Source: a virus (taxonomy: Duplodnaviria; Caudoviricetes). From it: DNA of 55,782 nucleotides. The DNA lies in the IMG/VR virus record IMGVR_UViG_3300031788_000021, positions 1-55,782 of that record, one strand, 5' to 3'. The notes below the pieces were generated by a model that was not told the DNA's origin, searched no databases, and saw only the letters and a program-made list of their open reading frames with translations. Below are positions 39,256-55,184 of the stretch, one piece after another (the stretch's first letter is position 1; every line of letters starts with the position of its first letter). The translations under genes and the position numbers were made by a program.

Positions 39256-42200
39256 ATGGCTGACGCCAACGACAAGACCGCGAGCGTGCCCGCCCCTGAA
39301 GGGTCGGGTCTCGTCACGTCCAACTTGGACGCCGAGTTCAAGATGATCAAGAACGCGGTGAGCCCGGGGCTGACCGGCAGCGCCCTCGTGGACATTCCCC
39401 GCGCGCGCATGAAGAAGATGGCGTCGCAGTTCGGGAACATGAGGCCGGGGCTGCACCGGCAGGCGCCGTCGTTCTACCACCCTCTGTTCGAGGCGCTGAA
39501 CCTACAGCTTCCGACGAAATCCTTCTATCCCGGGACGCTGATCACCATGGCGGACGGGACACAGAAGATTATCGAGAATTTCATGCCCGGTGACGAGGTT
39601 GTTTCTCACGACGGGTCGATAGAGGTCGTGGAGTTCACCGAGCACCATCCTGCGACCGGATCATCCGTCGAGATCAAGGCCCAGGGCATGGACCTGCCTC
39701 TGCGCGTGACCTCTGGGCACAAGGTCCTGGCTCTGCGTGCCGAGGACGTGGGGTGCGATAAGGAAGATAAGCCCGGGTTCTGCATTTTCGGGAAGAATAC
39801 CCACTGCGAGCGGTACACGAATGGGCCCAGGGGCAGCGTGGATCGCTGCAAGTCGAGGAGGAACGAAATCCCTGCCCCTCGACCGATCGAGGCATTCAAG
39901 CTCAGGAAGGGCGACTACGTGTTCGTCCCGATCGTGGGCGGCGTGGAGAAAATGAGTCCGTACAGGGAAGAGCGCTATAACCCGGCGACGAACTCGTTCA
40001 TCCACGTCAGGGACGTCGAGGTGGACGAGAAGATGATGAGGCTCTTGGGCTACTACGCCTCGGAGGGCTCCGTAGGCAAGCGCGCTGACGGGGAAATCCA
40101 CTCGACCACTTTCAGCCTGAATATAAATGAGAAGGACACCCTGGCAGCCGAGATCGTGGCCTTGATCAAGGATGTGTTCGGGAAGAAGGCTTGGAGTAAC
40201 CCGGGGCAGAACAATACCTACATTGTGGTGGTCAACGGCAAGAAGATAGGGAAGTGGTTCATCCGCCACTGTGGCAAACTGGCCAAGGAGAAGGTCCTGT
40301 CCCGGGAAGTTATGTTCGCGGACCCCGGTCTCCAAGTTCACTTCCTGGCTGCGTACGCCAACGGAGACGGGTCCCAGATTACCGGGGGCTCCAGCGCGGG
40401 TAAGGTCGTGATCACCACCGCGTCGGAGAACATGGCCAACCAGCTTGCTATCCTGGCTAGGCGTTGCGGCATGGCCCCGACCAAGCGCTACGAGTACAGG
40501 AAGGACGGGTTCTCGGGCGAGGGACACCCGACGTGGAATTGGCAGGTCGGAATCGCCAATGGCTTCGTGGCCCCTTTCGTGGGGATAAGCAAATTCGTCC
40601 AGCACAGAAAATCATTTTTCATGAACAAGATGGTGATCCATAAGAAGTGGATCGCGCATAAGATCATCTCTGTCAAGGAAATCGATTATCGAGGAGAGGT
40701 CTGGAATATCGGAGTCCGGAAGCCGGTCAGAATCCTCGTTCCGTACAAGGAAAAACACCTTTTGCTCCATGGTCGCTTCGTCGGAGGGAAGCCGTTTGAG
40801 CACCATATCGAAATCACTGGGGTGAGCACGGCGGGCAATCATACAGTGATCGCCAATGGGTATGCTTGCTGTCAAAGCCGCGAAATCAATCAGTGGGCGC
40901 GCCATTTCATGAAAACAGATGGTTACGTTGGGACCACTATTTCTATGCACGCCGACCTCCCGATGACCGGAGCCCACCTGGTCTGCGACGACGAGAAGGT
41001 GAAACTCTTCTTCGAGATTCTGTTCTTCGACGTGATCAAGGGCCTCAACCTTATCGGCGACATTAGTTTGGAATACTGGAAATTAGGAAATGTTTTTCCG
41101 TTTGGCGAGTGGGACGACGACCGTGGCATCTGGACGGGCTTCAACCTGCTGAACCCCGACTTCGTCGAGGTCGAGAAGGCCAGCCTCGTCGGTGAGCCGA
41201 TCCTCAAGCTGGACCCGGACGACAACCTCAAGCGGATCGTCGCCAGCCGCCAGCCCAAGGAACTGTACGAGGCGTTGGCCAAGATCGAGAACGGGCAGTT
41301 GGTCAACCTCGTGGCCCGTGGCGAGAAGATTCCGCTCAACAAGTTCCGCGTCAGCCACCTCGCGTACAAGATGAGCCCGTACGAGAGCGTGGGCACCCCG
41401 ATCATGTTCCGCGCCTTCAAGCCCCTGATCTTCAAGGACTTGGTCCGCCGGGTCCAGCAGGCGGTGTACGAGCGCCACATCACCCCGATCAAGCTCGTGA
41501 AGGTCGGCACCGACACCATGCCCGCGAACCCGCAGGCCGTGACTCAGGTGCGCGAGGCCTTCGACGAATTGAGCCAGGACCTGAGCGCCTGGTTCGTCTA
41601 CCACCACGCGATCTCGGTCGAGTACGTGTCCAGCGCCGGGAAGATTCACCCCTTCGACCAGGAGTCGAAGTGGATCAGGGAAGAGATCATGGCCGCTCTC
41701 ATGGGCTCCGAGGCCATGATCGGCGGCACCGGCCCGAACTTCGCCGCTGGTTCGATCGGCCTCCAGGTCCTGATCAACCGGTACATGCGGGTCCAAGAGA
41801 TGCTGGCGCGCTGGATCAAGGATACGATCTTCCGGCCCGTGGCCATAGCCCAGGACTTCCGGCGCCGCAACGAACTCGGGGAGGACGAGTACATCGTCCC
41901 CGACATCGAGTTCGAGTTCATGAAGCTCAAGGACGACGTCCAGATGAAGGGTCTGATGAAGGAGATGGCCAAGACCGGCCTGATCTCGAAGCAAACCTTC
42001 TACACGTACTTGGGCCTGGACTACCGCAAGGAGAAGCGCCAGATCGAGCGGGAGCGGGCCGAGGAGAAGAAGGCCGCGATGCAGGGGATGAAGCCCGGAG
42101 GCAAGCCCGGGGCGGGCGGCGCCGGGGCCCCTCCGCCCATGGGCGGTGGTGGCGGCGGGGACAGCGGCGGCGGTGAGGGACCGGTCCCCGGCGAGGGCGA

Positions 42201-42297
42201 GACTGCGGCCACGGTCCCGACCCCGGGCACGCCCATGCCTGCGGCGGAGACCATACCTGGCGCGGGCGCCGGTCAGGGACTCCCGGAGGCGGCATGA
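39256..42297 (+). CDS. portal protein (intein-containing)
   Basis: spliced sequence LPTK|SREINQWARHF ... EYWKLGNVFPF ... LLNPDFVEV ... GTPIMFRAF; Gly/Pro tail; position before gpF, protease and capsid. Confidence 0.85.
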   Translation: MADANDKTASVPAPEGSGLVTSNLDAEFKMIKNAVSPGLTGSALVDIPRARMKKMASQFGNMRPGLHRQAPSFYHPLFEALNLQLPTKSFYPGTLITMADGTQKIIENFMPGDEVVSHDGSIEVVEFTEHHPATGSSVEIKAQGMDLPLRVTSGHKVLALRAEDVGCDKEDKPGFCIFGKNTHCERYTNGPRGSVDRCKSRRNEIPAPRPIEAFKLRKGDYVFVPIVGGVEKMSPYREERYNPATNSFIHVRDVEVDEKMMRLLGYYASEGSVGKRADGEIHSTTFSLNINEKDTLAAEIVALIKDVFGKKAWSNPGQNNTYIVVVNGKKIGKWFIRHCGKLAKEKVLSREVMFADPGLQVHFLAAYANGDGSQITGGSSAGKVVITTASENMANQLAILARRCGMAPTKRYEYRKDGFSGEGHPTWNWQVGIANGFVAPFVGISKFVQHRKSFFMNKMVIHKKWIAHKIISVKEIDYRGEVWNIGVRKPVRILVPYKEKHLLLHGRFVGGKPFEHHIEITGVSTAGNHTVIANGYACCQSREINQWARHFMKTDGYVGTTISMHADLPMTGAHLVCDDEKVKLFFEILFFDVIKGLNLIGDISLEYWKLGNVFPFGEWDDDRGIWTGFNLLNPDFVEVEKASLVGEPILKLDPDDNLKRIVASRQPKELYEALAKIENGQLVNLVARGEKIPLNKFRVSHLAYKMSPYESVGTPIMFRAFKPLIFKDLVRRVQQAVYERHITPIKLVKVGTDTMPANPQAVTQVREAFDELSQDLSAWFVYHHAISVEYVSSAGKIHPFDQESKWIREEIMAALMGSEAMIGGTGPNFAAGSIGLQVLINRYMRVQEMLARWIKDTIFRPVAIAQDFRRRNELGEDEYIVPDIEFEFMKLKDDVQMKGLMKEMAKTGLISKQTFYTYLGLDYRKEKRQIERERAEEKKAAMQGMKPGGKPGAGGAGAPPPMGGGGGGDSGGGEGPVPGEGETAATVPTPGTPMPAAETIPGAGAGQGLPEAA
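39520..40875 (+). mobile_element. intein with LAGLIDADG endonuclease (452 aa; Ser1, C-terminal Cys-Gln, Ser+1)
   Basis: SFYPGTLITMADG (block A), VTSGHK (block B), LLGYYASEG and FLAAYANGDG (endonuclease), YRGEVWNIGV (block F), HTVIANGYACCQ|S. Confidence 0.88.
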
Positions 42298-42734
42298 GCT
42301 TCGACCCCAAGAACTACCGTGGCGCGGGAGACCGCAAGGACGTGCGCACCGGCTCCCCGGAGGACGTGGCCCTGCGCCCCGGCCTCATGTCGGAGAAGAC
42401 CCACCTCCCCGACCTCGACTACCGCAAGCTCCAGATGGCGTCCCTGGGCCGCATGGCCAAGGCCAAGACCGCCAAGGCCCCGGCGGACCACGCCGCAGGA
42501 CAGCGGTATCAGGCCCTGGTCAACTACCTGAGCCAGCGCGGGTCCCAGGTCGACGCCGCAGAGGTTGACCGCAGGATGCGGACCTGGTTCGAGGACCTGA
42601 TCAACCGCGTGCTCCAGGACCCGGCGGCCTGGGACGTGGAGAAGATTCTGGACGGCAAGGCCCTGATGGACTACCTCTCCGGGGTCAAGGGCGGGCAGGA
42701 GCAGCCCCCGCAGCAGGAACCCCCAGCCAAATGA
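42294..42734 (+). CDS. hypothetical head-module protein
   Basis: GGAGG RBS; ATGA coupling at both ends. Confidence 0.75.
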   Translation: MSFDPKNYRGAGDRKDVRTGSPEDVALRPGLMSEKTHLPDLDYRKLQMASLGRMAKAKTAKAPADHAAGQRYQALVNYLSQRGSQVDAAEVDRRMRTWFEDLINRVLQDPAAWDVEKILDGKALMDYLSGVKGGQEQPPQQEPPAK

Positions 42735-44494
42735 ACCCGATCATCTACCCGCACAGGGCAGTAGAGCGCGCGCCGATCAGGCTCGCGCTCCCCGAATCCG
42801 TGCTGGTCCGGAAGCTGGCGACCGCCCGCGACGACATGAGCGCGTTCGTGCTCCAGGACTTCCTCAAGGCCGGTTTCCGCGAGGTGGAGTGGCGCTACGG
42901 CTTCGAGCCCTGGCAGAATGAGAAGCTCTGGCAGGAGATGGGTAGCGTCTGCCCCGCGTGCTTCGCCCTGGACGGCCAGCGCTTCAAGATCGACTGGCTC
43001 CTCCAGAACATGCGGCACAACGCCCCGAAGTACACGATGAGTCACGTCAACTGTTTGCCCCCGGGGACGGAGATCATGATGTCGGATGGTTCTGTTCGCT
43101 TGATAGAGAGCATCAGGAAAGGGGACGCGGTCCTTGGGCATGACGGAGAGGCCCACCTCGTGACGGGGACGACGAAGAGGAAATACGTGGGCGACCTGGT
43201 CAGCCTATTGTCGTGGGGCGGAAAGGAACTATTGCTGACACCGAACCATCGCGTCTACGCTCAGAAGGGCCACTTGAAGTACGCTAATTCCGGCGGGACT
43301 GTGTTCTCGGATTGGGATTTTGTCCCAGCCGATGACCTCGAAGCAGGCGTTCGGAGAAAAAGGGGTGTATCCGACAAGGTCTATTTCCCAACGGTGTCAG
43401 GAAATTCTGGGTGCGATCTAACGGACGAGCAGGTGGAACTATTTGGGTACTGGATGGCCGAGGGTTGCACGAGGCTCAACAGGGGCACCGGAGAGAGGAT
43501 AGCCCTGATCTTCACCATAGGCCAGCATGAGATGGATTTCGCGAATAGGATAGGGGCTCTGTGTTCCCGCCTGGAGCAAGATAGCCATCTCTCGATCAGG
43601 AAGAACGGGCACGCCACGGTGGTCTACTGGTCATCTAAAAAATGGACCAAGATATTCATGGGACTGGGCGGGCTCGGCGCGCGTGAAAAGAAGATGGCAC
43701 CCGAGGCCATGAGGTGGCCCATCGATAAACAGAGAATTTTTCTCAACGCCTTCATTCGGGGAGACGGGCACATATCCAACCGGAATTTCTCGGACAAATA
43801 TCTCGGGAGGACCCAGAGGATATACATCACCACTCACTCCAAGCAGTTGGCGAACCAACTGTACGTGATGCTGGATCGCCTGCACGTCCCGGTGTTAATG
43901 AACGAGACCATGACCCCCACCGGACCTCAGGATCGCTTGGCCGGATCAACTAAAAAGTTCCCCCACTATCTGATCCACTTCAACAGGTGGTCGTGGGACC
44001 GGGTCGGTAAGCCCCCGCACACCAACTCCAGAGTCCTGGTCGCGGCCAACAGCGTGGTCTCAATGCTTAGGTCAGTGGGCAGGGTTCCGTATTCTGGCAT
44101 GGTCCACAATATCTCCGTCGCGGGGTCGCAGAGTTACATCGCCAACAGGATCGCGGTGCACAACTGCGAGTGCCGCCTCTTCAAGATCAACCGCACGGAC
44201 GAGATGCTGGACTTCTCCGAGCAGGTGACGGTAGTCCCCGGGGACATCGACCCGAGCCTGACCGAGGCCCCGGTCGACCTCGGGGACGTGCCCGAGGATC
44301 AGCGCCAGGAACTGGGCCTGCCCGAGCAGGAGAACCAGTGGACGGACATCGAGTGGAAGTGGGACCCGAAGCGCAACGAGTTCGTCCCGCTCAAGACCTT
44401 CATGGAGGGAGAGACCAGCCCCTGGCTCCTGGACCAGGACACCGGCGAGTTCGTGCCCCACGAGGAGTGGGTTAAGCGCCACGGTCTGCAATGA
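42731..44494 (+). CDS. Mu gpF/SPP1 gp7-like head morphogenesis protein (intein-containing)
   Basis: VCPACFALDG ... HVN|CEC after splicing matches the CxxC...HxNCxC motif. Confidence 0.8.
   Translation: MNPIIYPHRAVERAPIRLALPESVLVRKLATARDDMSAFVLQDFLKAGFREVEWRYGFEPWQNEKLWQEMGSVCPACFALDGQRFKIDWLLQNMRHNAPKYTMSHVNCLPPGTEIMMSDGSVRLIESIRKGDAVLGHDGEAHLVTGTTKRKYVGDLVSLLSWGGKELLLTPNHRVYAQKGHLKYANSGGTVFSDWDFVPADDLEAGVRRKRGVSDKVYFPTVSGNSGCDLTDEQVELFGYWMAEGCTRLNRGTGERIALIFTIGQHEMDFANRIGALCSRLEQDSHLSIRKNGHATVVYWSSKKWTKIFMGLGGLGAREKKMAPEAMRWPIDKQRIFLNAFIRGDGHISNRNFSDKYLGRTQRIYITTHSKQLANQLYVMLDRLHVPVLMNETMTPTGPQDRLAGSTKKFPHYLIHFNRWSWDRVGKPPHTNSRVLVAANSVVSMLRSVGRVPYSGMVHNISVAGSQSYIANRIAVHNCECRLFKINRTDEMLDFSEQVTVVPGDIDPSLTEAPVDLGDVPEDQRQELGLPEQENQWTDIEWKWDPKRNEFVPLKTFMEGETSPWLLDQDTGEFVPHEEWVKRHGLQ
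43052..44164 (+). mobile_element. canonical class-1 intein with LAGLIDADG endonuclease (371 aa)
   Basis: CLPPGTEIMMSDG, LTPNHR, LFGYWMAEG, FLNAFIRGDG, YSGMVHNISV..YIANRIAVHN|C. Confidence 0.93.
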
Positions 44495-44495
44495 T

Positions 44496-44726
44496 ATGAG
44501 CATGATCAAGCAAGGAGCACCGAAGGAGTCAAAGGTACTGGGCTTCGATCCGGCGGCGGGCTGGGTCGACCCCAAGTCCAAGGCCCAGCCTATGATCCCA
44601 GAACTGAACGTCTCGTGCCCGAACTGCCGCGTCCTGGCCCAGGCCAGCGCCGACGGCACCGTCTTCTGCCCGAAGTGCGGGATGATCATAAATCCCAGCA
44701 GCACCAACGAGAGGAAACCCCTATGA
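44496..44726 (+). CDS. small Zn-ribbon protein
   Basis: CPNC ... CPKCG. Confidence 0.7.
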   Translation: MSMIKQGAPKESKVLGFDPAAGWVDPKSKAQPMIPELNVSCPNCRVLAQASADGTVFCPKCGMIINPSSTNERKPL

Positions 44727-46858
44727 ACCAGATCGCGCTCCCCAGCGGCGGTTGGCTGAAGTACGCGTCCTTCGGCGGCAAGGTCGTGGAGCGCGCCGAC
44801 GGCTCCTGCCCCGAGTGCGCCCTCTTCCGGACGGCGGGCGTTGTCCGGCCCCGGTGCGAGCACCACTTCGTGGAGCGCACCGCTTTCGGTCTGAAGATCG
44901 CCGAGGCCCCGCAGAAGTACGCGGCGCTCCTCGACGACTACAAGAAGGCGATCAACGTCCAGCGCGTGGCCCCGATGAACCCCGAGTTCAGCTTCTACCG
45001 GGTCATGGGCCTGCACGGGGACTGGCCGAACACGAACGGCGACCTCTTCCGCTGGGGCTCCAAGGACGACGCCAACGAGCCCGAACTCCTGCGCCTGATC
45101 CGAGAGGGCAGTATGGTGGGGAAGAGCGTGTACCAGACCTTCGTCGGGAAAGGCAACTATAAGGACCACAACAACTCCAAGGTCGCTGACGCCGTCGGCA
45201 TCATCCTCGACGCGGTACCGAACCATCGGGTTAAGGGCGTCGAACTCCTGCTCGCCGTGGACCGGACCAAGGACCCGATGCTGGTCCGGGGCATCGACAG
45301 CGGATACATCACAGACGTATCGATGGGCGCCGTCCACCCCGAATCCCTCGTTCTCTTGGCCTCCGGGGAGACCGTGATGGCCGGGCACATGATCCCCGGG
45401 GTCGAGGTCGTCACCCACTGCGGTCGCCCCAAGATCGTCAAGGCGGTGCAGGTCTCCCAGATCGAGGGCACCGTCGTCTCGATCAAGGCCGAGGGCCTCA
45501 CCGCCACGGTCTTCACGGGGGACCACCCCATCTGGTCCATCTCGGCCCAGAGAAGGAAAGAGCAGAACATGTGGCGCTCCCGCATGAGCCACCAGCGCCA
45601 CTTGAAGCGGATGGAGGAATCGGGGTACGAGCGCCAAAGGAATAGGACCGCTCTCTTGGAGCCCCGCGAAGTTTCCCCGAATTTCGTCTCTGCCGCAGAC
45701 ATAAAGGTGGGCGACTACGTGGGCATCCCCTTCCCCACCGAGGTGAAGCCCAGCACCTTCTCCAACAAGGATTTCGCGCGCCTCCTGGGCTACTACATCT
45801 CCGAGGGCTGGATCATCACCCAGGACGGGAAGATGTCCGGGGTGGGGTTCGCCCTCAACATCAATGAGGGGAAGATCGCCGAGGAGATCGCCAACCTCTG
45901 CAAGAAGGTCATGGGCAAAGAGGCCCACGCCAGAGTCTGCGAGGAACGGAACGGCCTCTACCTGGAGGTCCACGATCGCGTTTGGCCCAAGGTCTTCACG
46001 GACCATGCGGGCCGGGGCGCCAAGACCAAGTCACTGTCCAACGAGGTCACCCTCTGGGACCCCTCCGTCCAGATGGAGATGCTCGGAGCCATGATCAATG
46101 GCGACGGCTTCCAGACCAAGACGGGGATGGTCTATTACTCAACCTCCTCCGAGGTCCTAGCGCGTCAGGCCCAGTCCATCTTCGCGCGCTGCGGGATCAT
46201 CGCGAACATCCAGGTCTTGAAGCACAAGCCCTCCAAGAACTCCGTCGTGAGGAAGGACACCGTGGAGTTCCAGGTCGCCGTGGGATGCACCTATTCCCAG
46301 AAGCTCTCTTCGGTCTCTAAGGTTTCCATAGTGGAGCCCAAGAGGCCGCACCACAACAAATTCATCCAGGACGGGTGCATCTGGACACCGATCAAGTCCA
46401 AAGAGATCGTCAAGTACTACGGACCAGTCGTCGACCTTCAAGTGGAAGGCGACGAGTCCTTCGTGGCCAACGGCATGGCCGTCCACAACTGCCGCGTCGC
46501 CTACTCCATCTGCACGATCTGCGCGAACGTCGCCCACAACGAGGCCGAGTACTGCCCCCATGTCAAGAACTGGAAGGGGCAGCAGTACAGCGGCCCCGAG
46601 ACCGGGTGGAAGAACGTGCTCGCCGCCGAGGACAATCGCGGCGTCGAGTTCATCGAGGAGTCGTGGGTCACCGTCGGCGCCGACACCAAGGCCAAGCACC
46701 TGGAGAAGATCGCGGCGCTGCGCAAGGTCAAGGGCCAGGCGCGCATGGCCGAGATATTGGCCGAGGCCGAGTCCGAGCTGAACAAGAACTGCCTCTGCGA
46801 CTGGCAGAAGGTGAGCAACCTCCTGGACATGGGGATCGCGCAGGCCATCCTGGCGTAG
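44723..46858 (+). CDS. prohead (capsid maturation) protease, intein-containing
   Basis: PNTNGDLF ... YKDHNN (His) ... AVGIILDA ... DVSMG|C (catalytic Ser) + CTIC..CPH insert ... FIEESWV..GAD. Confidence 0.85.
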   Translation: MNQIALPSGGWLKYASFGGKVVERADGSCPECALFRTAGVVRPRCEHHFVERTAFGLKIAEAPQKYAALLDDYKKAINVQRVAPMNPEFSFYRVMGLHGDWPNTNGDLFRWGSKDDANEPELLRLIREGSMVGKSVYQTFVGKGNYKDHNNSKVADAVGIILDAVPNHRVKGVELLLAVDRTKDPMLVRGIDSGYITDVSMGAVHPESLVLLASGETVMAGHMIPGVEVVTHCGRPKIVKAVQVSQIEGTVVSIKAEGLTATVFTGDHPIWSISAQRRKEQNMWRSRMSHQRHLKRMEESGYERQRNRTALLEPREVSPNFVSAADIKVGDYVGIPFPTEVKPSTFSNKDFARLLGYYISEGWIITQDGKMSGVGFALNINEGKIAEEIANLCKKVMGKEAHARVCEERNGLYLEVHDRVWPKVFTDHAGRGAKTKSLSNEVTLWDPSVQMEMLGAMINGDGFQTKTGMVYYSTSSEVLARQAQSIFARCGIIANIQVLKHKPSKNSVVRKDTVEFQVAVGCTYSQKLSSVSKVSIVEPKRPHHNKFIQDGCIWTPIKSKEIVKYYGPVVDLQVEGDESFVANGMAVHNCRVAYSICTICANVAHNEAEYCPHVKNWKGQQYSGPETGWKNVLAAEDNRGVEFIEESWVTVGADTKAKHLEKIAALRKVKGQARMAEILAEAESELNKNCLCDWQKVSNLLDMGIAQAILA
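45329..46489 (+). mobile_element. Ala1 intein with LAGLIDADG endonuclease (387 aa), class-2-like
   Basis: G|AVHPESLVLLASG, FTGDHP, LLGYYISEG, MLGAMINGDG, YYGPVVDLQV..FVANGMAVHN|C. Confidence 0.88.
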
Positions 46859-46859
46859 C

Positions 46860-46888
46860 TTGACTAAATTGAGGACTTGATACATAAT
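46860..46888 (+). promoter_or_regulatory. sigma70-type promoter upstream of the scaffold/capsid operon
   Basis: TTGACT-17bp-CATAAT. Confidence 0.6.
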
Positions 46889-47050
46889 ATGGCAGAGGAA
46901 GTGGCCAAGGACCAAAATACCGAGATCGTGCTCAACATCTACGATCTGCCGAAGACGATAACGCTGCGGCTCCCCAACGGGGAGTCCAAGGTCTACACCA
47001 TGAATTTTGCGCCGAAGACCAGCGGTCTATACCTGAACAAAGCTATGTAA
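46889..47050 (+). CDS. small HemP/HmuP-like protein (53 aa; alternative GTG start at 46901)
   Basis: translated by hand: MAEEVAKDQNTEIVLNIYDLPKTITLRLPNGESKVYTMNFAPKTSGLYLNKAM; C-terminus resembles the HemP pattern Y-x-L-x2-T-x2-G-x-L-x-L-[TN]-K. Confidence 0.55.
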   Translation: MAEEVAKDQNTEIVLNIYDLPKTITLRLPNGESKVYTMNFAPKTSGLYLNKAM

Positions 47051-47141
47051 GATGACACCGCCGTCGTAGCCCCTTAGGCAAGGGCGCCCGCGAGCGAGTC
47101 AGCGAGCGCGCGAGACCGAAAGGTCAAGCCAGCAAGCCAGC

Positions 47142-47179
47142 AAGCCAGCAACCACGCAAGGTTGCTGGCTTTTTGTTTT
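47142..47179 (+). terminator. intrinsic terminator/attenuator in the scaffold leader
   Basis: 12-bp stem AAGCCAGCAACC / GGTTGCTGGCTT followed by TTTGTTTT, directly before the RBS. Confidence 0.8.
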
Positions 47180-47192
47180 GAGGGAGGAGCAG

Positions 47193-50147
47193 ATGAAGGA
47201 CGAGAAGCCGCTGCACCAGGTCATCGCCGAAAAGTCCGGGATGCTCAACAAGATCATCCAGGCCAAATTTGGGGGCAACCCCGATGCGACCGCAGCCAGC
47301 GGCCAAGAAAATACTGTGGGGGACAACACCATGAAAGTGACGCGAAGCCAGGCCTCGAACGCTCCCGGAGAAGTCCGGGATGGGAAGCTCGTGGACGTGA
47401 AGGCGATGGCCGCCGCTGCGGCCCGGCAGGACGTGCCCGCAACCGATCTCGTGGCGTTGGCCCGCGCCAACGACCCCTACAACGAGAACTCCGCGATCCC
47501 CGCGACAATCGCCGGGGCCGTGACCGCTGCCGTCGAGGGCCTCCCCGGACAGGAAGTCTCCCAGGACAAGTCCAATGATGGAGCCCTGGGCAGCGTCGAG
47601 AAGACCCAGGCCGAGATGCTGAGCAATAAGCAGCACCCCGCCATCGAGAAGGCGGTCGAGACCCAGGTCGAGTCCCAGGTCGGGACCACCGACCCCTACA
47701 AGTCCCTGCACGCCAGCGCCGAGGTCGACCAGATCGTGGCCCGGGCCCAGGCCGTGCTCTCCGGAGCCGAGAAGATCAGGAAGGCCGCGACCGAAGTCGG
47801 CGAGCACCCCGGTGCGGGCAAGACCGAGGACGGCGGCCAGGGCAAGGTCTCCGGAGACCCGGCCAAGAACCCCCAGCAGTCGGCCAAGACCCTGGGCGAC
47901 GGCGGCGCCGAGAAGGGCGCGTCCCTCTCCGGCAGGACCTCGCGCAGGGACGTGGTCGCCGCGATCAAGGCCGAAATGGCCCGTCGCGCCAAAGTCGAGG
48001 GCGCCTTGATCGACCCCGCTGGCGACGGCGCGTCCCAGGACCCCAAGGAAGGCGCAGCGTCCATGGGTGACGGCGGCACGGAGAAGGCCGCCGCCGTCAC
48101 CGCCGAGAAGAAGGATCGGCCCGTGGCGCCGATGCCCGAGAACAAGCAGCGCTACAAGCGCGACGAGGACAACCGCGACGAGGAGGCCGAGTCCTACTGG
48201 AAGAAGAACAAGGCCGACGAGCGCCGCTTCGAGAGGGAGCCCGCGACGAATCGCCCCATCAATAAGGAACTCCAGGAGAAGCTGCCGACGCTCGCGCTGA
48301 TGAAGCGCGAACTCATTACCCGCGTGGCCGCGCTCCAGGACGTCATTGCCTCCGACGACGTCGCGCTGCGGCTGCACCTGAAGCGCCGCCACTACAACAA
48401 GGACGAGGCCAGCGACATGGACTTCGCGGGCGCGGCGGGGAAGACCAAGGGCGAGATCAGCACCGAGCACGCCCAGCGTAAGAACGATACGCACCCGTTC
48501 AGCCCGATGATGAGCCGCCTCTGGGCCGCGTACGGTCCCGTCAAGACCGCCGCCGACACCGGCTACGAGGGCAAGCTCCAGAAGGCCGAGGGCCGGGACG
48601 AACTCCGGAAGCAGGTCAACGAGTGGAAGACCGCGCTAAAAGGCATCACCTCCGAGGACAAGGGCTCCGAGGAGAAGCTGAACAACCTCAACTCCCAGAT
48701 CGAGAAGGGGGAGAAGGAGCTGGCCAAGGCCTCCGGCGTCCGCACGGGCCTGCCCTTCGCCGAGGCCATGGCCAATACCCTGGACCGCCTCGCCGTCATC
48801 GCCGCCGTCCTCCCCGACATCAATGAGATGGCCGAGGACTCCCACGAGGAGGTGAAGTCGTCCAAGGACAAGCCCCACGGCACCGGCGCCGCCGATCAGA
48901 CCCTGGACCTCCTTGAGGCCCTGGGCGAGACCGTCGAAGACATGGAGCAGACCATCATCAAGCTCCTCAAGGAGATGGGCCACCCCGAACTCGCGAAGAA
49001 GAAGGAGAAGGGCGAGAAGGCGGAGGAGAAGGCCGAGGGCGGGGCCGAAGCCGAGGACAAGAAGGGCCCGCCCAAGCCCGAGGCCGGAGAGGGTCTGCCC
49101 GGGGCCAAGGGCCCGATGGACTTCGGGGCCGAGGACGAGGCCGTGGAGATGATCGCGAGCAACACCAAGCTCGACGCCGGGACCCGGCGCGCCCAGATCA
49201 ACGAACTCCGCAAGGGCTCCGAGTGGAAGGCCCAGCTCCTCAAGGTCGCATCCAAGGCCGACGCCGCCAAGGCCGACGTCCTGGCCTCCTACTGGGAGGT
49301 CCTGCGCAACGGCGAGACCGTGCTCAAGCTCTGCGCTGCGGACGCGTACCCGGTAAAGACCGCCCAGAAGCAGGCGGAAGCCTTCGCCTGGTTCGCGACC
49401 CGGGATTACGGCAAGAAGCTGCTGGCCTCGGTCAAGTACGAGGGCCTGGCCAAGACCGCGAGGCTCCTCGGGGTCTCGCCCATGGTCCGGCAGGCTGCCG
49501 GTTCCTCCGGCGCCTTCAACGAGTACCAGACCTCGCGCCCCGCTGCCCCGGATAAGGCCCTGACCTCGGGACCGGCGGACAACCCCGGTCTGGAGGGCAA
49601 GGACCTACTGGCCTTCTACACCAAGGCCTACGGCAGCGCCGAGTTCGCCCGGGAGCTGGTGAAGCAGTACGAGCAGCGGCAGGCGATGGCCAAGGAGTTG
49701 GCCGCGCTCAAGAAGACCGTGGCCGCCCAGGAGCACCGCAGCGACGCGCTCCAGAAGGACATGGAGATGCGGGCGAAGGCGACCAGGGCCCTGGCCCTGG
49801 CCGACGTCGCCATCGACAAGGGCCTGCTCAACGAGGACAAGAAGGCCTCGTTCATCGACAAGCTCATGGTCGGGGACGAGACCTCGTTCTCGGCCACGGC
49901 GGAGATCGTGCAGAACATGAACAAGATCGCGGCGCCCAAGCCCGAGGACAAGAAGGAGGAGGGCAAGGACGGCGAGAAGAAGGAGGCGGGCAAGACCACG
50001 GCCCGGGACTTGATCCGCATTGCCGCCGCCAGTGGCGGCCTCAAGACCGCGACCGTGCTCCCCGCCAGCAGCGTCAGCACCGGCGGGTTGCAGGAGCAGC
50101 TGGGATCGCTGTGGCGCGTGCCCCCGACTCCTAAGGCAGAGGCGTAA
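47193..50147 (+). CDS. scaffold-like head protein
   Basis: GGAGGAG RBS; charged, coiled-coil-rich; lies between protease and decoration/capsid; many [KR]xA motifs. Confidence 0.75.
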   Translation: MKDEKPLHQVIAEKSGMLNKIIQAKFGGNPDATAASGQENTVGDNTMKVTRSQASNAPGEVRDGKLVDVKAMAAAAARQDVPATDLVALARANDPYNENSAIPATIAGAVTAAVEGLPGQEVSQDKSNDGALGSVEKTQAEMLSNKQHPAIEKAVETQVESQVGTTDPYKSLHASAEVDQIVARAQAVLSGAEKIRKAATEVGEHPGAGKTEDGGQGKVSGDPAKNPQQSAKTLGDGGAEKGASLSGRTSRRDVVAAIKAEMARRAKVEGALIDPAGDGASQDPKEGAASMGDGGTEKAAAVTAEKKDRPVAPMPENKQRYKRDEDNRDEEAESYWKKNKADERRFEREPATNRPINKELQEKLPTLALMKRELITRVAALQDVIASDDVALRLHLKRRHYNKDEASDMDFAGAAGKTKGEISTEHAQRKNDTHPFSPMMSRLWAAYGPVKTAADTGYEGKLQKAEGRDELRKQVNEWKTALKGITSEDKGSEEKLNNLNSQIEKGEKELAKASGVRTGLPFAEAMANTLDRLAVIAAVLPDINEMAEDSHEEVKSSKDKPHGTGAADQTLDLLEALGETVEDMEQTIIKLLKEMGHPELAKKKEKGEKAEEKAEGGAEAEDKKGPPKPEAGEGLPGAKGPMDFGAEDEAVEMIASNTKLDAGTRRAQINELRKGSEWKAQLLKVASKADAAKADVLASYWEVLRNGETVLKLCAADAYPVKTAQKQAEAFAWFATRDYGKKLLASVKYEGLAKTARLLGVSPMVRQAAGSSGAFNEYQTSRPAAPDKALTSGPADNPGLEGKDLLAFYTKAYGSAEFARELVKQYEQRQAMAKELAALKKTVAAQEHRSDALQKDMEMRAKATRALALADVAIDKGLLNEDKKASFIDKLMVGDETSFSATAEIVQNMNKIAAPKPEDKKEEGKDGEKKEAGKTTARDLIRIAAASGGLKTATVLPASSVSTGGLQEQLGSLWRVPPTPKAEA

Positions 50148-50216
50148 GCGAGAGATATAGGGCGGAAGCCGCCGACGGCACAGTGCGCGGCAACGCCTGA
50201 GTAAGGAGGAACGGAA

Positions 50217-50774
50217 ATGCTCAGAACGCAAGGGATGTATGAGGGCGTTCCGATCGGTGACAAGAAGCTGTTCTCCGGAGTGGAAGCTGCGTTCGGCGGC
50301 GTGACCGCTGAACTGCTCGGGGCCTCGGCCTTGGGCTTGCAGAAGCCCTACGGCGAGCAGGAACTCGGCTTCGCGGCGGGCAAGATCGCCCAGCTCGTGT
50401 CCGAGACCGACGGGACTTTGGCTGTGACCATCTCCGATGGCACGCAGCCCGAGGGAATCTTCGCGGATTCCTTCATCGACACGCTGAAGTCCGGGAAGGC
50501 GACGTACTACGCCTTCTTCGGGGACTACTTCACGGACCAGTTCGACCTGACTCCGGCCAACGCTCCGTACCTCGTGGGCTTGGACCTCTACGTCGTGGCT
50601 GGCACCGGCGTCGCCGATCCGGTGCGGGGGCTGCTGACCATCGACCGGACCAAGGCCGCAGGCTACAGCGCCGGACCCCCGGTCACCAGCACGGGGAAGA
50701 GGGTCGGACACGTCTTCCAGGTCCCGGACCTGGCCAACGGAGTGCTCCTGGGCTTCCACTGGCAGGTCAGCTAG
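50217..50774 (+). CDS. head decoration/cement protein (putative)
   Basis: TAAGGAGG RBS; 185-aa beta-rich protein immediately before the MCP. Confidence 0.7.
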   Translation: MLRTQGMYEGVPIGDKKLFSGVEAAFGGVTAELLGASALGLQKPYGEQELGFAAGKIAQLVSETDGTLAVTISDGTQPEGIFADSFIDTLKSGKATYYAFFGDYFTDQFDLTPANAPYLVGLDLYVVAGTGVADPVRGLLTIDRTKAAGYSAGPPVTSTGKRVGHVFQVPDLANGVLLGFHWQVS

Positions 50775-50870
50775 AGCTGACCTGAGACGAGTCTCACGCC
50801 GCAGACGCAGACGTCGCACCGCGACGGGCCCGGACGGCCAGTGGCCCGCGCATCGAAGGAGGAGGTCAGC

Positions 50871-51752
50871 ATGAACGCACAAGCAACGATGACCCCCGAG
50901 CAGAAGGAGTTCCTGATCGAGGAAGCGCTGAAGACCGAAGCCGGTCGCATGGCGCTGGCCAGCAGCATGGCCAACCCGATCCGCTTGACCTTGGACTATC
51001 AAGGCATCGGACGGAAGCTCCTCGTCGTGGACCCCCTGCCTCAGGGCGCCTTGCCGGTTTACGACAAGGACGTGAAAATCCCCGTGATCGTGGTCTCCAA
51101 GCGCGGCTCCGCGCCGGACTCGATCGTGGAGGGCGAGCGCATCACCGTCGGGACCTGGGAGATCGTGTCTTACCCCCAGGTGCGGTTCAGTCAGGTCAAG
51201 GAGCGCCGCTACAACCTGATCGACCGCGCCCAGCAGCGCGCGAAGCTCGATCTGATGGCCGAGGAAGACCGGAACGTCTTCAACGCCATCGATCGGTCCA
51301 GCAACCTGCTGAACCCCGAGACGACCGTGGCCAACCAGTTGACCCGAGACGCTCTGGTCAGCGGCCTCGCTGAGATCGGGAAATGGGACCTCGTGCCCGC
51401 GAAGTTCGTCATGAACTTCTCCGAGTACTCCGACCTCATGAAGTTCGGGCGGGATCAGTTCGATCCCGTGACCCAGCGGGAAGTCCTCCAGACCGGCCTC
51501 GTCGGCCACCTCTGGACCCTGGATATCCTGGTCTCCAAGATCGTGCCGCGCGGGACCATCTGGGTCATCGCCGAGCCCGAGTTCACGGGCGTGATCCCGA
51601 TCCGCCAGGACGTCAACGTCATCCCTGCGGACAAGCCCGAGCGCCTGCGCCTGGGCTGGGTCGTGTACGAGGAACTGGGAATCGCGGTGGTCAACCCCCG
51701 CGCCTGCTCCCGGATCAACGTCACGGGCAAACCCACCTTCGTTCCGTTCTAA
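50871..51752 (+). CDS. major capsid protein (HK97 fold, encapsulin-like type)
   Basis: AGGAGGAGG RBS; LASSMANPIR..LDYQGIGRK..LPQGALPVYDKD ... RRYNLIDRAQQ ... GWVVYEELGIAVVNPR. Confidence 0.9.
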   Translation: MNAQATMTPEQKEFLIEEALKTEAGRMALASSMANPIRLTLDYQGIGRKLLVVDPLPQGALPVYDKDVKIPVIVVSKRGSAPDSIVEGERITVGTWEIVSYPQVRFSQVKERRYNLIDRAQQRAKLDLMAEEDRNVFNAIDRSSNLLNPETTVANQLTRDALVSGLAEIGKWDLVPAKFVMNFSEYSDLMKFGRDQFDPVTQREVLQTGLVGHLWTLDILVSKIVPRGTIWVIAEPEFTGVIPIRQDVNVIPADKPERLRLGWVVYEELGIAVVNPRACSRINVTGKPTFVPF

Positions 51753-51769
51753 ACGAGGGCGGTTGAAAA

Positions 51770-51797
51770 GCCCGGGGCCCCGCGAGGGGCCCCGGGC
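51770..51797 (+). terminator. strong hairpin after the MCP (terminator or mRNA-stabilising stem)
   Basis: GCCCGGGGCCCC-GCGA-GGGGCCCCGGGC; no + strand U-tract. Confidence 0.6.
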
Positions 51798-51877
51798 AAA
51801 GTCCGCAAACGTGAGGCAGTGGATAGGGGAGACACCCCGGCGAAAGTCAACTTACAACAAAAAAATTCAAGGAGGGC

Positions 51878-52480
51878 ATGAACATGCCGACATCAGCGGG
51901 ATCGGACGGTTGGGACAACGAGGGCCGGGTCTATACGGTGATCAAGAACGCGACGAGGAACTCGAAGATCGTTCTGTCGATGCTCAACGGCATCGAGATA
52001 GGACCCGGGCAGGTTCTGGATTTGAGGACGGCTTTCCGCAAATCCCAGGTCGTGGACGCTGCGCACGAGATCGCGTCCCTGATCAGGACGGGCCATCTCC
52101 TGGACATCGGGGAAGGAGCGGCCAAGGGCCCGGCGCCGGTGAACACCGGTATGCCGACCCAGGCCGAGATGCAGGACCGGATCAGGCAGAACCTGATCCG
52201 CGACATCAGCGACTCATCGAGCATGAGCGCTCTGGAAGACTGGATGGCCAACAAGGACCCGGAGATCGCGAAGGCGGCCAAGCTCCGCGCCGACATCCTC
52301 CTGGGAAACCGCACGGACTCCGGGGAGCTGATCCCTGGTTCCGAGGAGACCTCGGCGAAGCCGACGGAGCTGATCCGCAGCGGCAGTGTCAACGGCGCGC
52401 CTGAGGCGGCCACGGCCACAGCCACAGTCGGGGCCGGGATCATCCGCAGGGCCGGAGTCGAGTCCGGGATCATCGAATAG
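51878..52480 (+). CDS. putative virion protein
   Basis: AAGGAGG RBS; N-terminal domain resembles 3372 and 6989. Confidence 0.75.
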   Translation: MNMPTSAGSDGWDNEGRVYTVIKNATRNSKIVLSMLNGIEIGPGQVLDLRTAFRKSQVVDAAHEIASLIRTGHLLDIGEGAAKGPAPVNTGMPTQAEMQDRIRQNLIRDISDSSSMSALEDWMANKDPEIAKAAKLRADILLGNRTDSGELIPGSEETSAKPTELIRSGSVNGAPEAATATATVGAGIIRRAGVESGIIE

Positions 52481-52499
52481 ACGCATAGGGGGTGTTCAC

Positions 52500-55016
52500 A
52501 TGCCTACGGATTCGCTGCCAGCACCGTTCTTCGCACCCGGGGACTACGACGGCGTTCCCAAACAGGTGCCGACGCAGTTCACCCCGACGGCCCCGTCCAA
52601 TGTGAACACCCCCAACGTGCCCCTGCCCCTGCCTGAGGGCTCAGACAACCCCAAGCACGTGCAGGTCTTCGCCTACGACCCCCTGAGCAGCCAGTTCAAG
52701 CCCGTAAACTGGGTCGACGGTCAGCTCTCGGTCGACGCCACATTCAGCGGCTCGATCTCGGTCGGGGCCGTCACCCTGAAGGACGGGGCGAGCGGAACCC
52801 TGGGATCGATCATCCCCGTGGGCGCCGTGAACGCCCAGGTCGTGACCGTCAGCGCGACGCAGGCCGCGATCCCGGTCACGATCGCCGGAGGCTCGTTCGA
52901 CGTCAGCGAGAACCTGGCAGAGGTCGGTGGCGCTCCCATAGCCCTGGGCCAGGCCGCGATGGCCGCGTCCCTGCCCGTGGTTATTGCCTCTAATCAGACG
53001 GCACTGCCCGTGTCTGGGACCGTGGCAGTCTCTAATTTCCCGGCCAGTCAGCCGGTCTCGGGGACGATCACAGCAAATCAGGGCGGAGCCCCCTGGTCTC
53101 AGAATATAACGGAAATTGGCGGTTCTTCAGTTGCCTTGGGCCAGGCTCTCATGGCCGCGTCCCTGCCCGTGGTCATGGCCTCGGACTACGTCCAGTCACC
53201 CTCCGCAGACCTCAGCGCGTCGGGTACGATCACCGCCCTCAATGGCTCGGTCACCCTCCCGATCCACGGCTGCGGCTCCGCGATCTTCACCGTCACCGGG
53301 ACCTGGGCCGGGACCCTGGCGTTGCAGGGCCTGGCCGCAGACGGAGCCACCTGGCTGTCCTTGGTCGGGAACACGGGCTCCACCGGGACCTACGCGGTCC
53401 AGAACGCGATCTCAGCCAACGGCTCGTACAAGGTCATCAACATCGCGTCGTTCATGCAGATCAGGGCCACGGCCACGGCCTTCACCTCGGGTCCGATCAG
53501 CGTCGGGATCGTCGCCGCGTCCCCGGTCCAGCGCAACGAGGTCGTGCAGCTCAATGCCGCGAACCTGAACGCCACCGTCAGCGGCTCCGTCTCGGTCTCT
53601 AATTTCCCGGCCAGTCAGCCGGTCTCGGGGACGGTGACAGCGAATACCCAGGCCGACGTCGCCCTGGCTTCGCAGACTATAACGGTCCAGGACACGGGGT
53701 CGACCTCGACCGTAGTCGCGGACGGCCAGACCTGGTACTCCGGGACCCCAACTGCGGGGAGCGCGGCCACATTCGCGATGCCCTCGTGCGAAACCGCTCA
53801 ATTGGAGATCACGGGGACCTGGACCGGGACCCTGCAAGTGGAAGTCTCAGGGGATGGCACGACCTGGGTCACCCGATCCCTCCACGTCGGTGGGACCGCG
53901 ATACTCGCGTCCTCGTTCACGGCCAACATCTTCGGTGCGGCCAATGTCGGGGGCAAGTCCTATATCCGAGTCAGGGCCATCGCCGCCATAACCGGGACCG
54001 CGACCGTATCCTGCCTGGTCTCGAACAACCCCACGCTCTTCTACATCGCCAACTCCCTGAGGTTGTGCGACACCTCGAACCCGCTGGCGGTCCAGACCAT
54101 GGTCATCAAGCCCGCGAGCACGCCAGCGGCGGCAGCGGACGCGTCCATGGTCGTGGCCATGAGCCCGAACAGCCCCTTGCCTGCTGGCACCAACGCCCTG
54201 GGGACGGTCGCGGCTCAGACGGTGGATGTCCCGGTATCCGCCCCCGTGAACATAACCGCGCAGGATACGGCTACGACCGCTACGGTCGTGGCCATAACAA
54301 GCTCGTTAAACCAGACGATGTACTCAGGGACTCCGACCACGGGCTCTGCGGCGATCTTCCCCGTTGGGACATACTCCTACGATACGGCTCAGGTCAACGT
54401 CTCCGGTACGTGGACGGGGACGATCCAGGTCGAGACCTCGGACGACGGAGGCGTGACCTACGTTTCGCACTCGCTCCACATAATAAGTTCGTCCCTGTTC
54501 TTGTCGTCGTTCACGACCAACGTCATTGGCTCGGCGAACATGGGCGGGAAGACCCATATCAGGGTCCGTGCCATCGCGGCCTGGACCGGGACCGCTGCGG
54601 TCAGGGTCGTGTTCTCCAACAACCCCACCAGCATCTATGTGGCCAATGCCCTGAGGATCACTGATGGCGCCACATCCGTCACGTCCATGGCGGTCAAGCC
54701 CGCGTCGACCCCGGCGGCGGCGACGGACCCGGCTGCGGTCGTGACGACGCAGCGGGCCTCGACTCTGAACACGAACCAGGTCTCGGTCGGGAACACGCCG
54801 ACGCTTATCATCGCCGCGAACACCAGCCGCAAGCGCATCGTCATCACCAACCTCGGGACCACCAATGTCTTCATCGGGGGCAGCGCCGTCACCACGACCA
54901 CGGGCCAGCTCCTACAGGGCCTGGCTGGGTACCCACTCGCCCTCTACTGCACGGGCGCGATCTACGGTGTCGCGACCCCGAACCAGAGCGTCGCCTACTC
55001 AGAGGAGGCCATCTGA
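52500..55016 (+). CDS. repeat-rich virion fibre/decoration protein
   Basis: LGQAxMAASLPVV twice, VSNFPASQPVSGT twice, three beta-sandwich repeats with GTWxGT. Confidence 0.8.
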   Translation: MPTDSLPAPFFAPGDYDGVPKQVPTQFTPTAPSNVNTPNVPLPLPEGSDNPKHVQVFAYDPLSSQFKPVNWVDGQLSVDATFSGSISVGAVTLKDGASGTLGSIIPVGAVNAQVVTVSATQAAIPVTIAGGSFDVSENLAEVGGAPIALGQAAMAASLPVVIASNQTALPVSGTVAVSNFPASQPVSGTITANQGGAPWSQNITEIGGSSVALGQALMAASLPVVMASDYVQSPSADLSASGTITALNGSVTLPIHGCGSAIFTVTGTWAGTLALQGLAADGATWLSLVGNTGSTGTYAVQNAISANGSYKVINIASFMQIRATATAFTSGPISVGIVAASPVQRNEVVQLNAANLNATVSGSVSVSNFPASQPVSGTVTANTQADVALASQTITVQDTGSTSTVVADGQTWYSGTPTAGSAATFAMPSCETAQLEITGTWTGTLQVEVSGDGTTWVTRSLHVGGTAILASSFTANIFGAANVGGKSYIRVRAIAAITGTATVSCLVSNNPTLFYIANSLRLCDTSNPLAVQTMVIKPASTPAAAADASMVVAMSPNSPLPAGTNALGTVAAQTVDVPVSAPVNITAQDTATTATVVAITSSLNQTMYSGTPTTGSAAIFPVGTYSYDTAQVNVSGTWTGTIQVETSDDGGVTYVSHSLHIISSSLFLSSFTTNVIGSANMGGKTHIRVRAIAAWTGTAAVRVVFSNNPTSIYVANALRITDGATSVTSMAVKPASTPAAATDPAAVVTTQRASTLNTNQVSVGNTPTLIIAANTSRKRIVITNLGTTNVFIGGSAVTTTTGQLLQGLAGYPLALYCTGAIYGVATPNQSVAYSEEAI

Positions 55017-55183
55017 TGATCCAGTACAAGGTCATCGCCGACCCGGGCCAGGACGGGGTATCCGTCGGAGACGCGTTGCAGGGAGACGGCGTCGCCCCGT
55101 TCCAGGACATGAGCAATCTCGGCGTCTACGTCGCCTGCAACTTCGTGACCGGAAATCCCCAATTCTTCCAACCGGTGAACTGA
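55016..55183 (+). CDS. small hypothetical protein (55 aa)
   Basis: GAGGAGG RBS, TGATG coupling; MIQYKVIADPG...; translated by hand. Confidence 0.6.
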   Translation: MIQYKVIADPGQDGVSVGDALQGDGVAPFQDMSNLGVYVACNFVTGNPQFFQPVN

Positions 55184-55184
55184 G

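Follow-up and report, generated by a model that had tools for sequence, protein, structure and literature searches.

A HemP/HmuP-like small gene and AGCN leader repeats merged with a terminator ahead of the capsid genes of a peat phage: a candidate post-transcriptional switch

In this work we analyzed the 55,782-nucleotide (nt) stretch of DNA in IMG/VR virus record IMGVR_UViG_3300031788_000021 (Duplodnaviria; Caudoviricetes), hereafter the window, and within it the short region between the prohead protease gene and a 984-amino-acid (aa) open reading frame (ORF) that lies ahead of the major capsid gene. The window is a phage genome fragment that IMG/VR lists as linear and estimates to be 38% complete, its sequence originates from peat metagenomes, and GenBank phages gave no DNA match to it. 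An earlier note on this DNA had proposed that a small HemP/HmuP-like protein binds leader repeats, prevents a terminator from forming and thereby switches on scaffold, decoration and capsid expression. The features of the locus, in window coordinates, are as follows.

46860..46888, + strand: sigma-70-like promoter, TTGACT-17-CATAAT, 10/12 matches
46889..47050, + strand: small ORF of 53 aa plus stop (47048-47050), with a HemP/HmuP-like C-terminus (…GESKVYTMNFAPKTSGLYLNKAM)
47093..47108, + strand: left set of period-4 units, AGCG AGTC AGCG AGCG (AGCGAGT and AGCGAGC variants)
47114..47125, + strand: GACC-GAAA-GGTC hairpin, 4 base pairs (bp) with a GAAA tetraloop, between the repeat sets
47126..47149, + strand: AAGCCAGC three times (AGCC AGCA x3; copies at 47126, 47134 and 47142), the right set, resembling an HmuP-responsive element (HPRE)
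47142..47180, + strand: intrinsic terminator, AAGCCAGCAACC-acgcaa-GGTTGCTGGCTT plus U-tract, its left arm being the third repeat
47193-50147, + strand: 984-aa ORF, with Shine-Dalgarno sequence GGGAGGAG at 47182-47189 and ATG at 47193

The small gene, its promoter and its leader

The 53-aa ORF, which had been described as missing from the ORF track, is present where the earlier note placed it, and the ORF list carries it as 46877..47050 (57 aa, with a TTG start). Queries with the protease and with the N-terminal end of the 984-aa protein brought up relatives of the locus, which form five lineages together with the window: the window itself, L010, L012, L003 (equal to L006 and L011) and L002 (equal to L007, L013 and L014). 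The small ORF is kept as an ORF of 53-65 aa in all five, plus nine database representatives; GC content is 0.65-0.81 at its third codon positions versus 0.32-0.42 at its second, and the ratio of nonsynonymous to synonymous change (dN/dS) was below 1 in 10 of 10 pairs (range 0.20-0.77). Judged from its sequence, the small ORF is a real gene that evolves as a protein under purifying selection. The protein is fast-evolving, with 33-40% identity versus 63-71% in the neighbouring gene, the latter figure being that of the N-terminus of the 984-aa ORF among relatives. A HMMER profile search of 1.84 billion proteins added nine small proteins (49-65 aa) that share the C-terminus of the family; the remaining 12 matches, all long repetitive proteins, were taken as spurious. 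A sequence search of the PDB with the phage profile returned the P22 portal only (E 0.2).

The promoter and the small ORF both lie at the positions that had been given for them, but they do not make up a simple expression unit, because the ATG precedes the predicted transcription start. The -10 box CATAAT occupies 46883-46888, which by the usual distance from -10 box to start places transcription initiation at ~46894-46897, downstream of the ATG at 46889. This arrangement, with the ATG upstream of the predicted start, recurred in 5/5 lineages, and in L002, L003 and L012 the ATG falls within the -35 box (TTGAAATG). The ‘HN’ found near the N-terminus of many members of the small-protein family is the -10 box translated in frame, its His coinciding with CATAAT. 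The promoter at 46860-46888 therefore cannot express the full ORF and, with no conserved later start, the full protein would need transcripts from the protease gene. A shorter, promoter-driven protein was considered and rejected, as there is no conserved in-frame start codon past the predicted transcription start, and we prefer to view the RNA made from the promoter as a leader of 285 nt or an RNA in its own right. Promoter-like matches of such quality are within chance when taken alone (4 found versus 2.3 expected in 40000-55782); the promoter is kept in 5/5 lineages as TTGACT or TTGAAA, a spacing of exactly 17 nt, and CATAAT or CACAAT. One metatranscriptome contig (46720-46912) runs from the last part of the protease gene into the beginning of the small ORF, with DNA carry-over being possible.

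The 12-bp terminator described in the earlier note, with the third repeat as its left arm and its end just before the Shine-Dalgarno sequence, was confirmed, as were the hairpin and the three direct repeats. Its stem (47142-47171) comprises 12 pairs, 7 of them G-C, around a loop of 6 and is followed by TTTGTTTT; the reverse complement of AAGCCAGC lies at 47164-47171. It is the sole strong terminator-like site on the + strand in the whole window, the minimum-free-energy fold predicts a terminator in 5/5 lineages, and in 5/5 lineages the left arm starts with the last repeat copy. The right arm had been said to pair with any of the three repeats, which is possible (-36.7, -28.2 and -25.0 kcal/mol for repeats 3, 2 and 1 in a 72-nt context), but the alternative pairings are still terminator-like and are not antiterminators. 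Since pairing with repeat 1 or 2 still leaves a hairpin next to the U-tract, these two repeats would be spare terminator arms, so that a factor would need to cover all of the repeats, which predicts cooperative, switch-like behaviour. Furthermore, the U-tract and the ATG at 47193 are only 12 nt apart, and the terminator stands 22 nt before that start; transcripts of the 984-aa ORF must therefore cross the terminator. A promoter scan found no sigma-70-like site between the terminator and the major capsid gene. Of the proposed gating of the capsid genes, the position is supported: the terminator precedes the 984-aa ORF and, by the sigma-70-type scan, the major capsid gene as well.

The leader element runs in steps of four, AGCG AGTC AGCG AGCG, then the hairpin, then AGCC AGCA AGCC AGCA AGCC AGCA, and Tandem Repeats Finder reported a period of 8 at 47125-47160. 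The 8-mer AAGCCAGC has six matches in the window versus 1.75 expected, a number reached by 2 of 100 shuffles. Its core AGCCAGC has 3 copies in the spacer of 142 nt versus 7 (+) and 11 (-) in the other 55.6 kb, and AGCCAGC-N0-40-AGCCAGC was found at the locus alone in three viral records (55.8, 139 and 62 kb). The remaining AAGCCAGC copies, at 9329-9336 (+) and 9386-9393 (-), form an inverted pair 50 nt apart inside a giant ORF.

All five lineages share the promoter, the 53-65-aa ORF and AGCCAGC-type units that flank a hairpin of 4-5 bp, followed by a repeat-armed terminator, U-tract, Shine-Dalgarno sequence and next gene start. The relatives carry 2-6 exact AGCCAGC copies in a spacer that is otherwise poorly alignable. 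The hairpin stems are GACC/GGTC, GATC/GGTC, GTCC/GGAC, CCCC/GGGG and (G)CCCC/GGGG(C), with GNRA loops in 4/5 lineages. All 20 of 20 cells pair across the five lineages and both sides change at 2 of 4 pairs, giving a covariation score of 0.80 versus 0.28 for shuffles (reached by 5/500 shuffles), with the qualification that the count is flattered by our having chosen the hairpin 12-mers by eye. A covariance model of the element was given up, since the hairpin had been misaligned by MAFFT. An Rfam match to sraL, an enterobacterial Hfq-binding small RNA, at 47021-47173 (26.8 bits against a gathering score of 39; E 0.0019 in a 2-kb search) was taken as chance, since it was not found in four related loci. 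In two AT-rich distant relatives (L008 and L009) the slot holds another small gene, zinc-ribbon-like, and there are no repeats; a search for more phage relatives with a sub-alignment recovered only the L003 contig again.

Likeness to HmuP-responsive elements and HemP/HmuP proteins

The portion of PMC9241770 available to us describes the HPRE as a direct repeat widespread in alpha- and betaproteobacteria. According to the accessible part of PMC9131926, predicted HPREs of Chromobacterium violaceum are CCCGCAAGCCAGCCGACAGCCAGCCAGCG, 26 nt before chuR, and GCCAGCCAGACGACGCCGCCG, before vbuA; the HemP/HmuP-family protein ChuP was proposed to act on HPREs in the 5'-untranslated region (5'-UTR), and it did not bind DNA probes. 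As far as these two sources go, the mode of action of HmuP/HemP is disputed across papers, with a DNA-binding activator, a repressor and a post-transcriptional activator all put forward (PMC9131926, PMC9241770).

We compared the phage repeats with bacterial loci found through the Pfam HemP model, which detected hemP/hmuP in 4/5 genomes reached via handles, 21/41 Rhizobiaceae genomes and 18/41 Burkholderiales genomes (a tally that counts the unpublished genome G071, whose locus was omitted from analysis). Within the 250 nt after hemP at 15 Burkholderiales loci, there are 24 AGCCAGC copies in 3,750 nt (6.4 per kb), whereas the rest of those loci holds 13 copies in 79,938 nt (0.16 per kb), a density ~39-fold lower. 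Nine of the 15 loci have at least two copies, in pairs 12-30 nt apart and often around a small hairpin, and the repeats lie 30-100 nt before a gene for a signal-peptide protein. In Rhizobiaceae the motif lies on the divergent leader beside hmuP, with at least one exact copy in 15/21 loci and at least two in 6/21; first copies include AGCGAGC and AGCAAGC, and AGCGAGC (L143, L145) is the variant present in the left set of the window. Taken together, 45 bacterial copies give the consensus G-C-[C/A]-AGCCAGC-C. The window has three exact AGCCAGC copies and two AGCGAG[TC] variants, the last repeat ending 43 nt before the ATG at 47193, with the HemP-like ORF directly upstream. The phage repeat and the published HPRE accordingly have the same AGCCAGC core and the same direct-repeat layout, and the analogy drawn in the earlier note holds, the mechanism being something that we infer. 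As a matter of sequence likeness, this kinship with the HPRE is the strongest point in favour of an HmuP-type switch. A scan of genome contigs with AGCCAGCCN{0,8}AGCCAGCC returned at least 120 stretches, nearly all inside long open frames of high-GC genomes. In the 41 Rhizobiaceae genomes a loose pattern was as common as its reversed control, and only the copies beside hmuP were informative.

The layout, too, recalls the characterized systems, namely HmuP/HPRE at the Ensifer meliloti shmR leader and ChuP at the chuR and vbuA leaders. Phage and bacteria alike feature a protein of 50-90 aa with a (K/G)LIL(N/T)K-type end, and in these systems, as in the phage, AGCCAGC(C) direct repeats occupy the leader 20-60 nt before the regulated start; a positive post-transcriptional effect has been proposed for them. 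In Burkholderiales and C. violaceum, as in the phage, the repeats and then the target gene follow directly on the small gene. The phage differs in that its target would be a capsid module and not a TonB-dependent heme or siderophore receptor, its protein falls outside PF10636 and has no conserved His, each side has 3-6 period-4 units versus ~2-3, a GNRA hairpin stands between the sets, and the last repeat forms part of an intrinsic terminator, an overlap not seen in the bacterial loci.

A few bacterial loci have terminator-like signals of their own. In L170, alone among the bacterial loci, a canonical terminator distinct from the repeats stands between them and the receptor gene. In 4 of 12 Burkholderiales loci viewed (L135, L161, L169 and L171), 6-7 T follow right after the second AGCCAGC(C), ~100-160 nt past the hemP stop; no good hairpin was predicted at these T-runs, which could bear on bacterial HmuP action. 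In L079, a Comamonas metagenome-assembled genome (MAG), copies of AGCCAGCCAGCC and AAAGCCAGC at 1406-1445 follow the stop of a small gene, and the final one supplies the left arm for a hairpin (AAAGCCAGC-cccgt-GCTGGCTTT) with a T-rich tail, a phage-like design with no hemP noticed nearby.

For the protein comparison, 37 bacterial HemP/HmuP proteins from the genomes sampled with the Pfam model were set against 12 proteins of the phage family. Alignment of the two profiles with hhalign scored 27.1 (P 1.8e-5, probability 78%) over 17 columns, whereas 0/400 column shuffles scored above 18.1 and the reversed alignment scored 9.9. The match pairs the last 17 columns, …rY.L.fA.kt.GL.LNKA with …YrLRiTRqGK-LILtK. 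The hallmarks of HemP/HmuP proteins, in the part of PMC9241770 at hand, are a C-terminal KLILxK motif and conserved His and Tyr residues implicated in heme binding. Among the 12 phage-family members the C-terminal motif reads GL[ILYM]LNK in 10/12 and GL[FY]LR in 2/12, and the family Tyr is aligned in 9/12. Additionally, AlphaFold models of the phage protein (pLDDT 78.9) and of a rhizobial HmuP (pLDDT 78.4) agree in the order of their predicted elements, in which a short helix and three strands come after a disordered N-terminus, the strands spanning residues 22-27, 33-41 and 46-51 in the phage protein and 43-48, 51-57 and 63-66 in HemP. The predicted order of helix and three strands behind a disordered N-terminus also agrees with the solved HemP structures 2JRA (RPA2121, a domain-swapped dimer), 4YNX (YdiE) and 2LOJ; both inter-strand loops are 1-2 residues longer in the phage family.

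A candidate switch and competing explanations

We consider that the locus may encode a phage-borne post-transcriptional switch of the HmuP/HPRE type ahead of the scaffold-like and major capsid genes, a reading by analogy to which we assign a probability of roughly 45%. Under such a mechanism several copies of the small protein would attach to the repeats while these are single-stranded in the nascent transcript, keeping hold of the terminator's 5' arm; all of the repeats would have to be held, since repeats 1 and 2 are back-up arms, and polymerase would then read through into the 984-aa ORF, the 185-aa ORF behind it and the major capsid gene. The full protein would be made only from upstream portal/protease transcripts and would accumulate first, and the accumulated protein would then let transcripts initiated at the strong promoter (46860) past the gate. 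Being made only from upstream transcripts, the protein may act as a delay element.

The design has partial counterparts elsewhere. HutP and TRAP of Bacillus subtilis are oligomeric small proteins that read 3-4-nt repeats in leader RNA and decide whether a terminator forms, HutP binding preventing the terminator. The phage locus would resemble them in combining a small protein, short single-stranded leader repeats and a terminator; their repeats, however, are UAG or GAG triplets with spacers, whereas those of the phage are AGCN with a period of 4, and no relation in sequence or fold was shown. In phages, lambda N/nut and Q/qut, P22 and the HK022 put RNA provide cases in which a phage factor or RNA lets polymerase pass a terminator before late or structural genes. 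Antitermination of the lambda N and Q type modifies the elongation complex to ignore many terminators; in contrast, the element described here coincides with one particular arm of a terminator, suggesting that competition for the hairpin is local.

Several results weigh against an HmuP-type switch, most of them concerning the protein. The Pfam HemP model (PF10636, gathering score 25 bits) matched none of five ORFs at E up to 10, a six-frame search with it matched neither the window nor, at E up to 1, G086 or G087, and the HMMER search of 1.84 billion proteins retrieved no canonical HemP. The hhalign match covers few columns and has a probability of only 78%; in the phage family G replaces the K before LIL in KLILxK, the family Tyr is F in 3/12 proteins, and the conserved His is missing, the I-x-H-x-G of HemP corresponding to L-x-L-x-x-G. 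Scores in the ESM Atlas were at most 0.83, the chance level. Foldseek with the phage model did not list HemP structures (best E 0.35), a test of low power, as a genuine HmuP model itself finds 2JRA, 4YNX and 2LOJ only at E 0.005-0.04. As for the RNA, there are only five independent lineages behind the hand-picked hairpin comparison, and most bacterial HPREs examined are without an overlapping terminator, folding having shown none that was clear, so that antitermination is not a known HmuP mechanism. Papers cited in the parts of PMC9131926 and PMC9241770 that we drew on report DNA binding or transcriptional activation by Bradyrhizobium japonicum HmuP and Burkholderia multivorans HemP, and two of those cited in PMC9131926 present HemP/HmuP as activators that bind DNA. 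The sparse metatranscriptome contigs (4 runs) leave 47008-47675 uncovered, a gap that we list here and that is not evidence either way.

With PF10636 unmatched and the hallmarks present only in part, the protein is not filed as a PF10636 member, and by sequence it would be at most a distant sister family of HemP/HmuP. The description of the small protein as HemP/HmuP-like thus survived in part: the C-terminal hhalign match and the same predicted order of secondary structure speak for it, but the Pfam HemP model does not match and the His is lacking. The small gene is not linked to a TonB-dependent receptor gene for heme or siderophores; its neighbours are the prohead protease, the 984-aa ORF and the major head protein.

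A further proposal is that the protein is a heme-independent offshoot of HmuP, a multimeric clamp on single-stranded AGCN repeats that melts the terminator, with the module serving as a feed-forward timer; we regard this as doubtful. If it were true, it would offer the first concrete mechanism for bacterial HmuP/ChuP, that of guarding leaders from premature termination.

The element could instead be a constitutive partial terminator or insulator that ends the portal/protease transcripts and the short promoter RNA, stabilizes their 3' end and lets a fixed fraction of polymerases read through; the small protein would have an unrelated role (e.g., in head assembly), and the repeats would serve RNA stability, processing or another factor. 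The terminator is canonical and strong, all three pairing registers are terminator-like, and the gene sits within a head-assembly module, all of which fit this explanation, as do the failure of the protein to match the Pfam HemP model and the similar repeat-armed terminator in L079 (Comamonas), away from any hemP. What it leaves unexplained is the presence of AGCN repeats flanking a covarying hairpin in 5/5 lineages while the spacer drifts, the identity of the motif with the HPRE core, and the non-random HemP-like C-terminus of the adjoining protein; moreover, a fixed brake before the most abundantly needed product, 285 nt past a near-consensus promoter, would be odd. We consider this explanation unlikely.

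Rather improbable in our view is that the repeats are a true HPRE read by the HmuP/HemP of the host, such that capsid expression follows the heme/iron state of the host, or a decoy, in which case an abundant ~285-nt RNA with at least five sites would titrate host HmuP and lower heme-receptor expression, a process that the phage protein could help or compete with. Motif and layout are indeed those of the bacterial HPRE, and the promoter RNA, which starts inside the ORF and cannot encode the full protein, resembles a leader or non-coding RNA. The phage protein is without the heme-ligand His, and it ends in LILNK, as does rhizobial HmuP (most of the 21 Rhizobiaceae loci have KLILNK), a hint of an alphaproteobacterial setting. 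These observations have to be set against the linkage of the small ORF to the repeats in every lineage, which points to a cognate pair, and against the lack of canonical hemP on the viral records; the sequence itself comes from peat metagenomes only.

Control at the DNA level, with the small protein acting from the double-stranded repeats on initiation or as a roadblock, is highly improbable: direct repeats are typical of DNA operators and the reports on B. japonicum HmuP and B. multivorans HemP cited in the seen parts of PMC9131926 and PMC9241770 would allow it, HemP/HmuP having been described as a transcriptional activator or co-activator, but the repeats lie ~235-290 nt downstream of the sole promoter-like site with no room for a promoter before the next gene, hairpin pairing is kept as the sequence changes and 4/5 loops are GNRA (an RNA signature), one repeat forms part of an RNA terminator, and ChuP failed to bind DNA probes (PMC9131926).

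Returning to the HmuP-type switch, what is new in the phage is the larger number of units per side, the GNRA hairpin between the sets, the capsid-module target and the fusion of the last unit to a terminator arm. A literature search found no work tying HmuP/HemP or the HPRE to phages, and a pattern-based search of 2.9 million viral contigs found canonical HemP in one only (L210). If the reading is true, this would be, as far as these searches show, the first phage use of an HmuP-type regulator and its first use outside iron/heme uptake, and a compact protein-RNA switch of ~55 aa and 60 nt would join the known means of timing phage capsid expression. The merger of repeat and terminator turns a vague action in the 5'-UTR into a sharp test, namely whether the protein binds the repeat RNA and suppresses a defined hairpin, and the value of the finding is that a poorly understood regulator is joined to a defined, testable RNA structure.

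Gene order around the locus and further observations

The genes that flank the small gene, its leader and the 984-aa ORF are as follows.

39256-42297: portal, upstream of the locus
between portal and prohead protease: 587-aa head protein
44615..46858, + strand: prohead (head maturation) protease with a LAGLIDADG intein inside (phrog_18299, E 1.9e-11; stop TAG 46856-46858)
between the 984-aa ORF and the major head protein: 185-aa ORF
50841..51752, + strand: major head protein gene (phrog_2522, E 6.2e-82), downstream of the terminator

The 984-aa ORF matched no known family in Pfam and PHROG searches and is scaffold-like by position alone. Within the protease, Pfam places LAGLIDADG_3 at residues 485-542 and Intein_splicing at 358-625; homologues of the protease in L002 (gene of ~1.07 kb) and L003 are without the intein. 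The records of L002 (G086, 139 kb) and L003 (G087, 62 kb) are IMG/VR proviruses, so that host flanks are possible and could name a host.

A metatranscriptome contig from run X17 joins 44803 to 47952 and skips 3148 nt, with one side only 21 nt long; it is probably a chimeric assembly or derives from another organism. The giant ORF that holds the inverted AAGCCAGC pair encodes 3705 aa (7568-18685), and its PHROG matches fall only in a segment of ~170 aa (~residues 2206-2376) common to minor head, virion and DarB-like proteins. Short tandem arrays were also noted, GCTGAC x17 at 420-520, CGCTGA x10 at 2794-2855 and a 12-mer x5.8 with 100% identity at 24691-24759, all three of them near-perfect.

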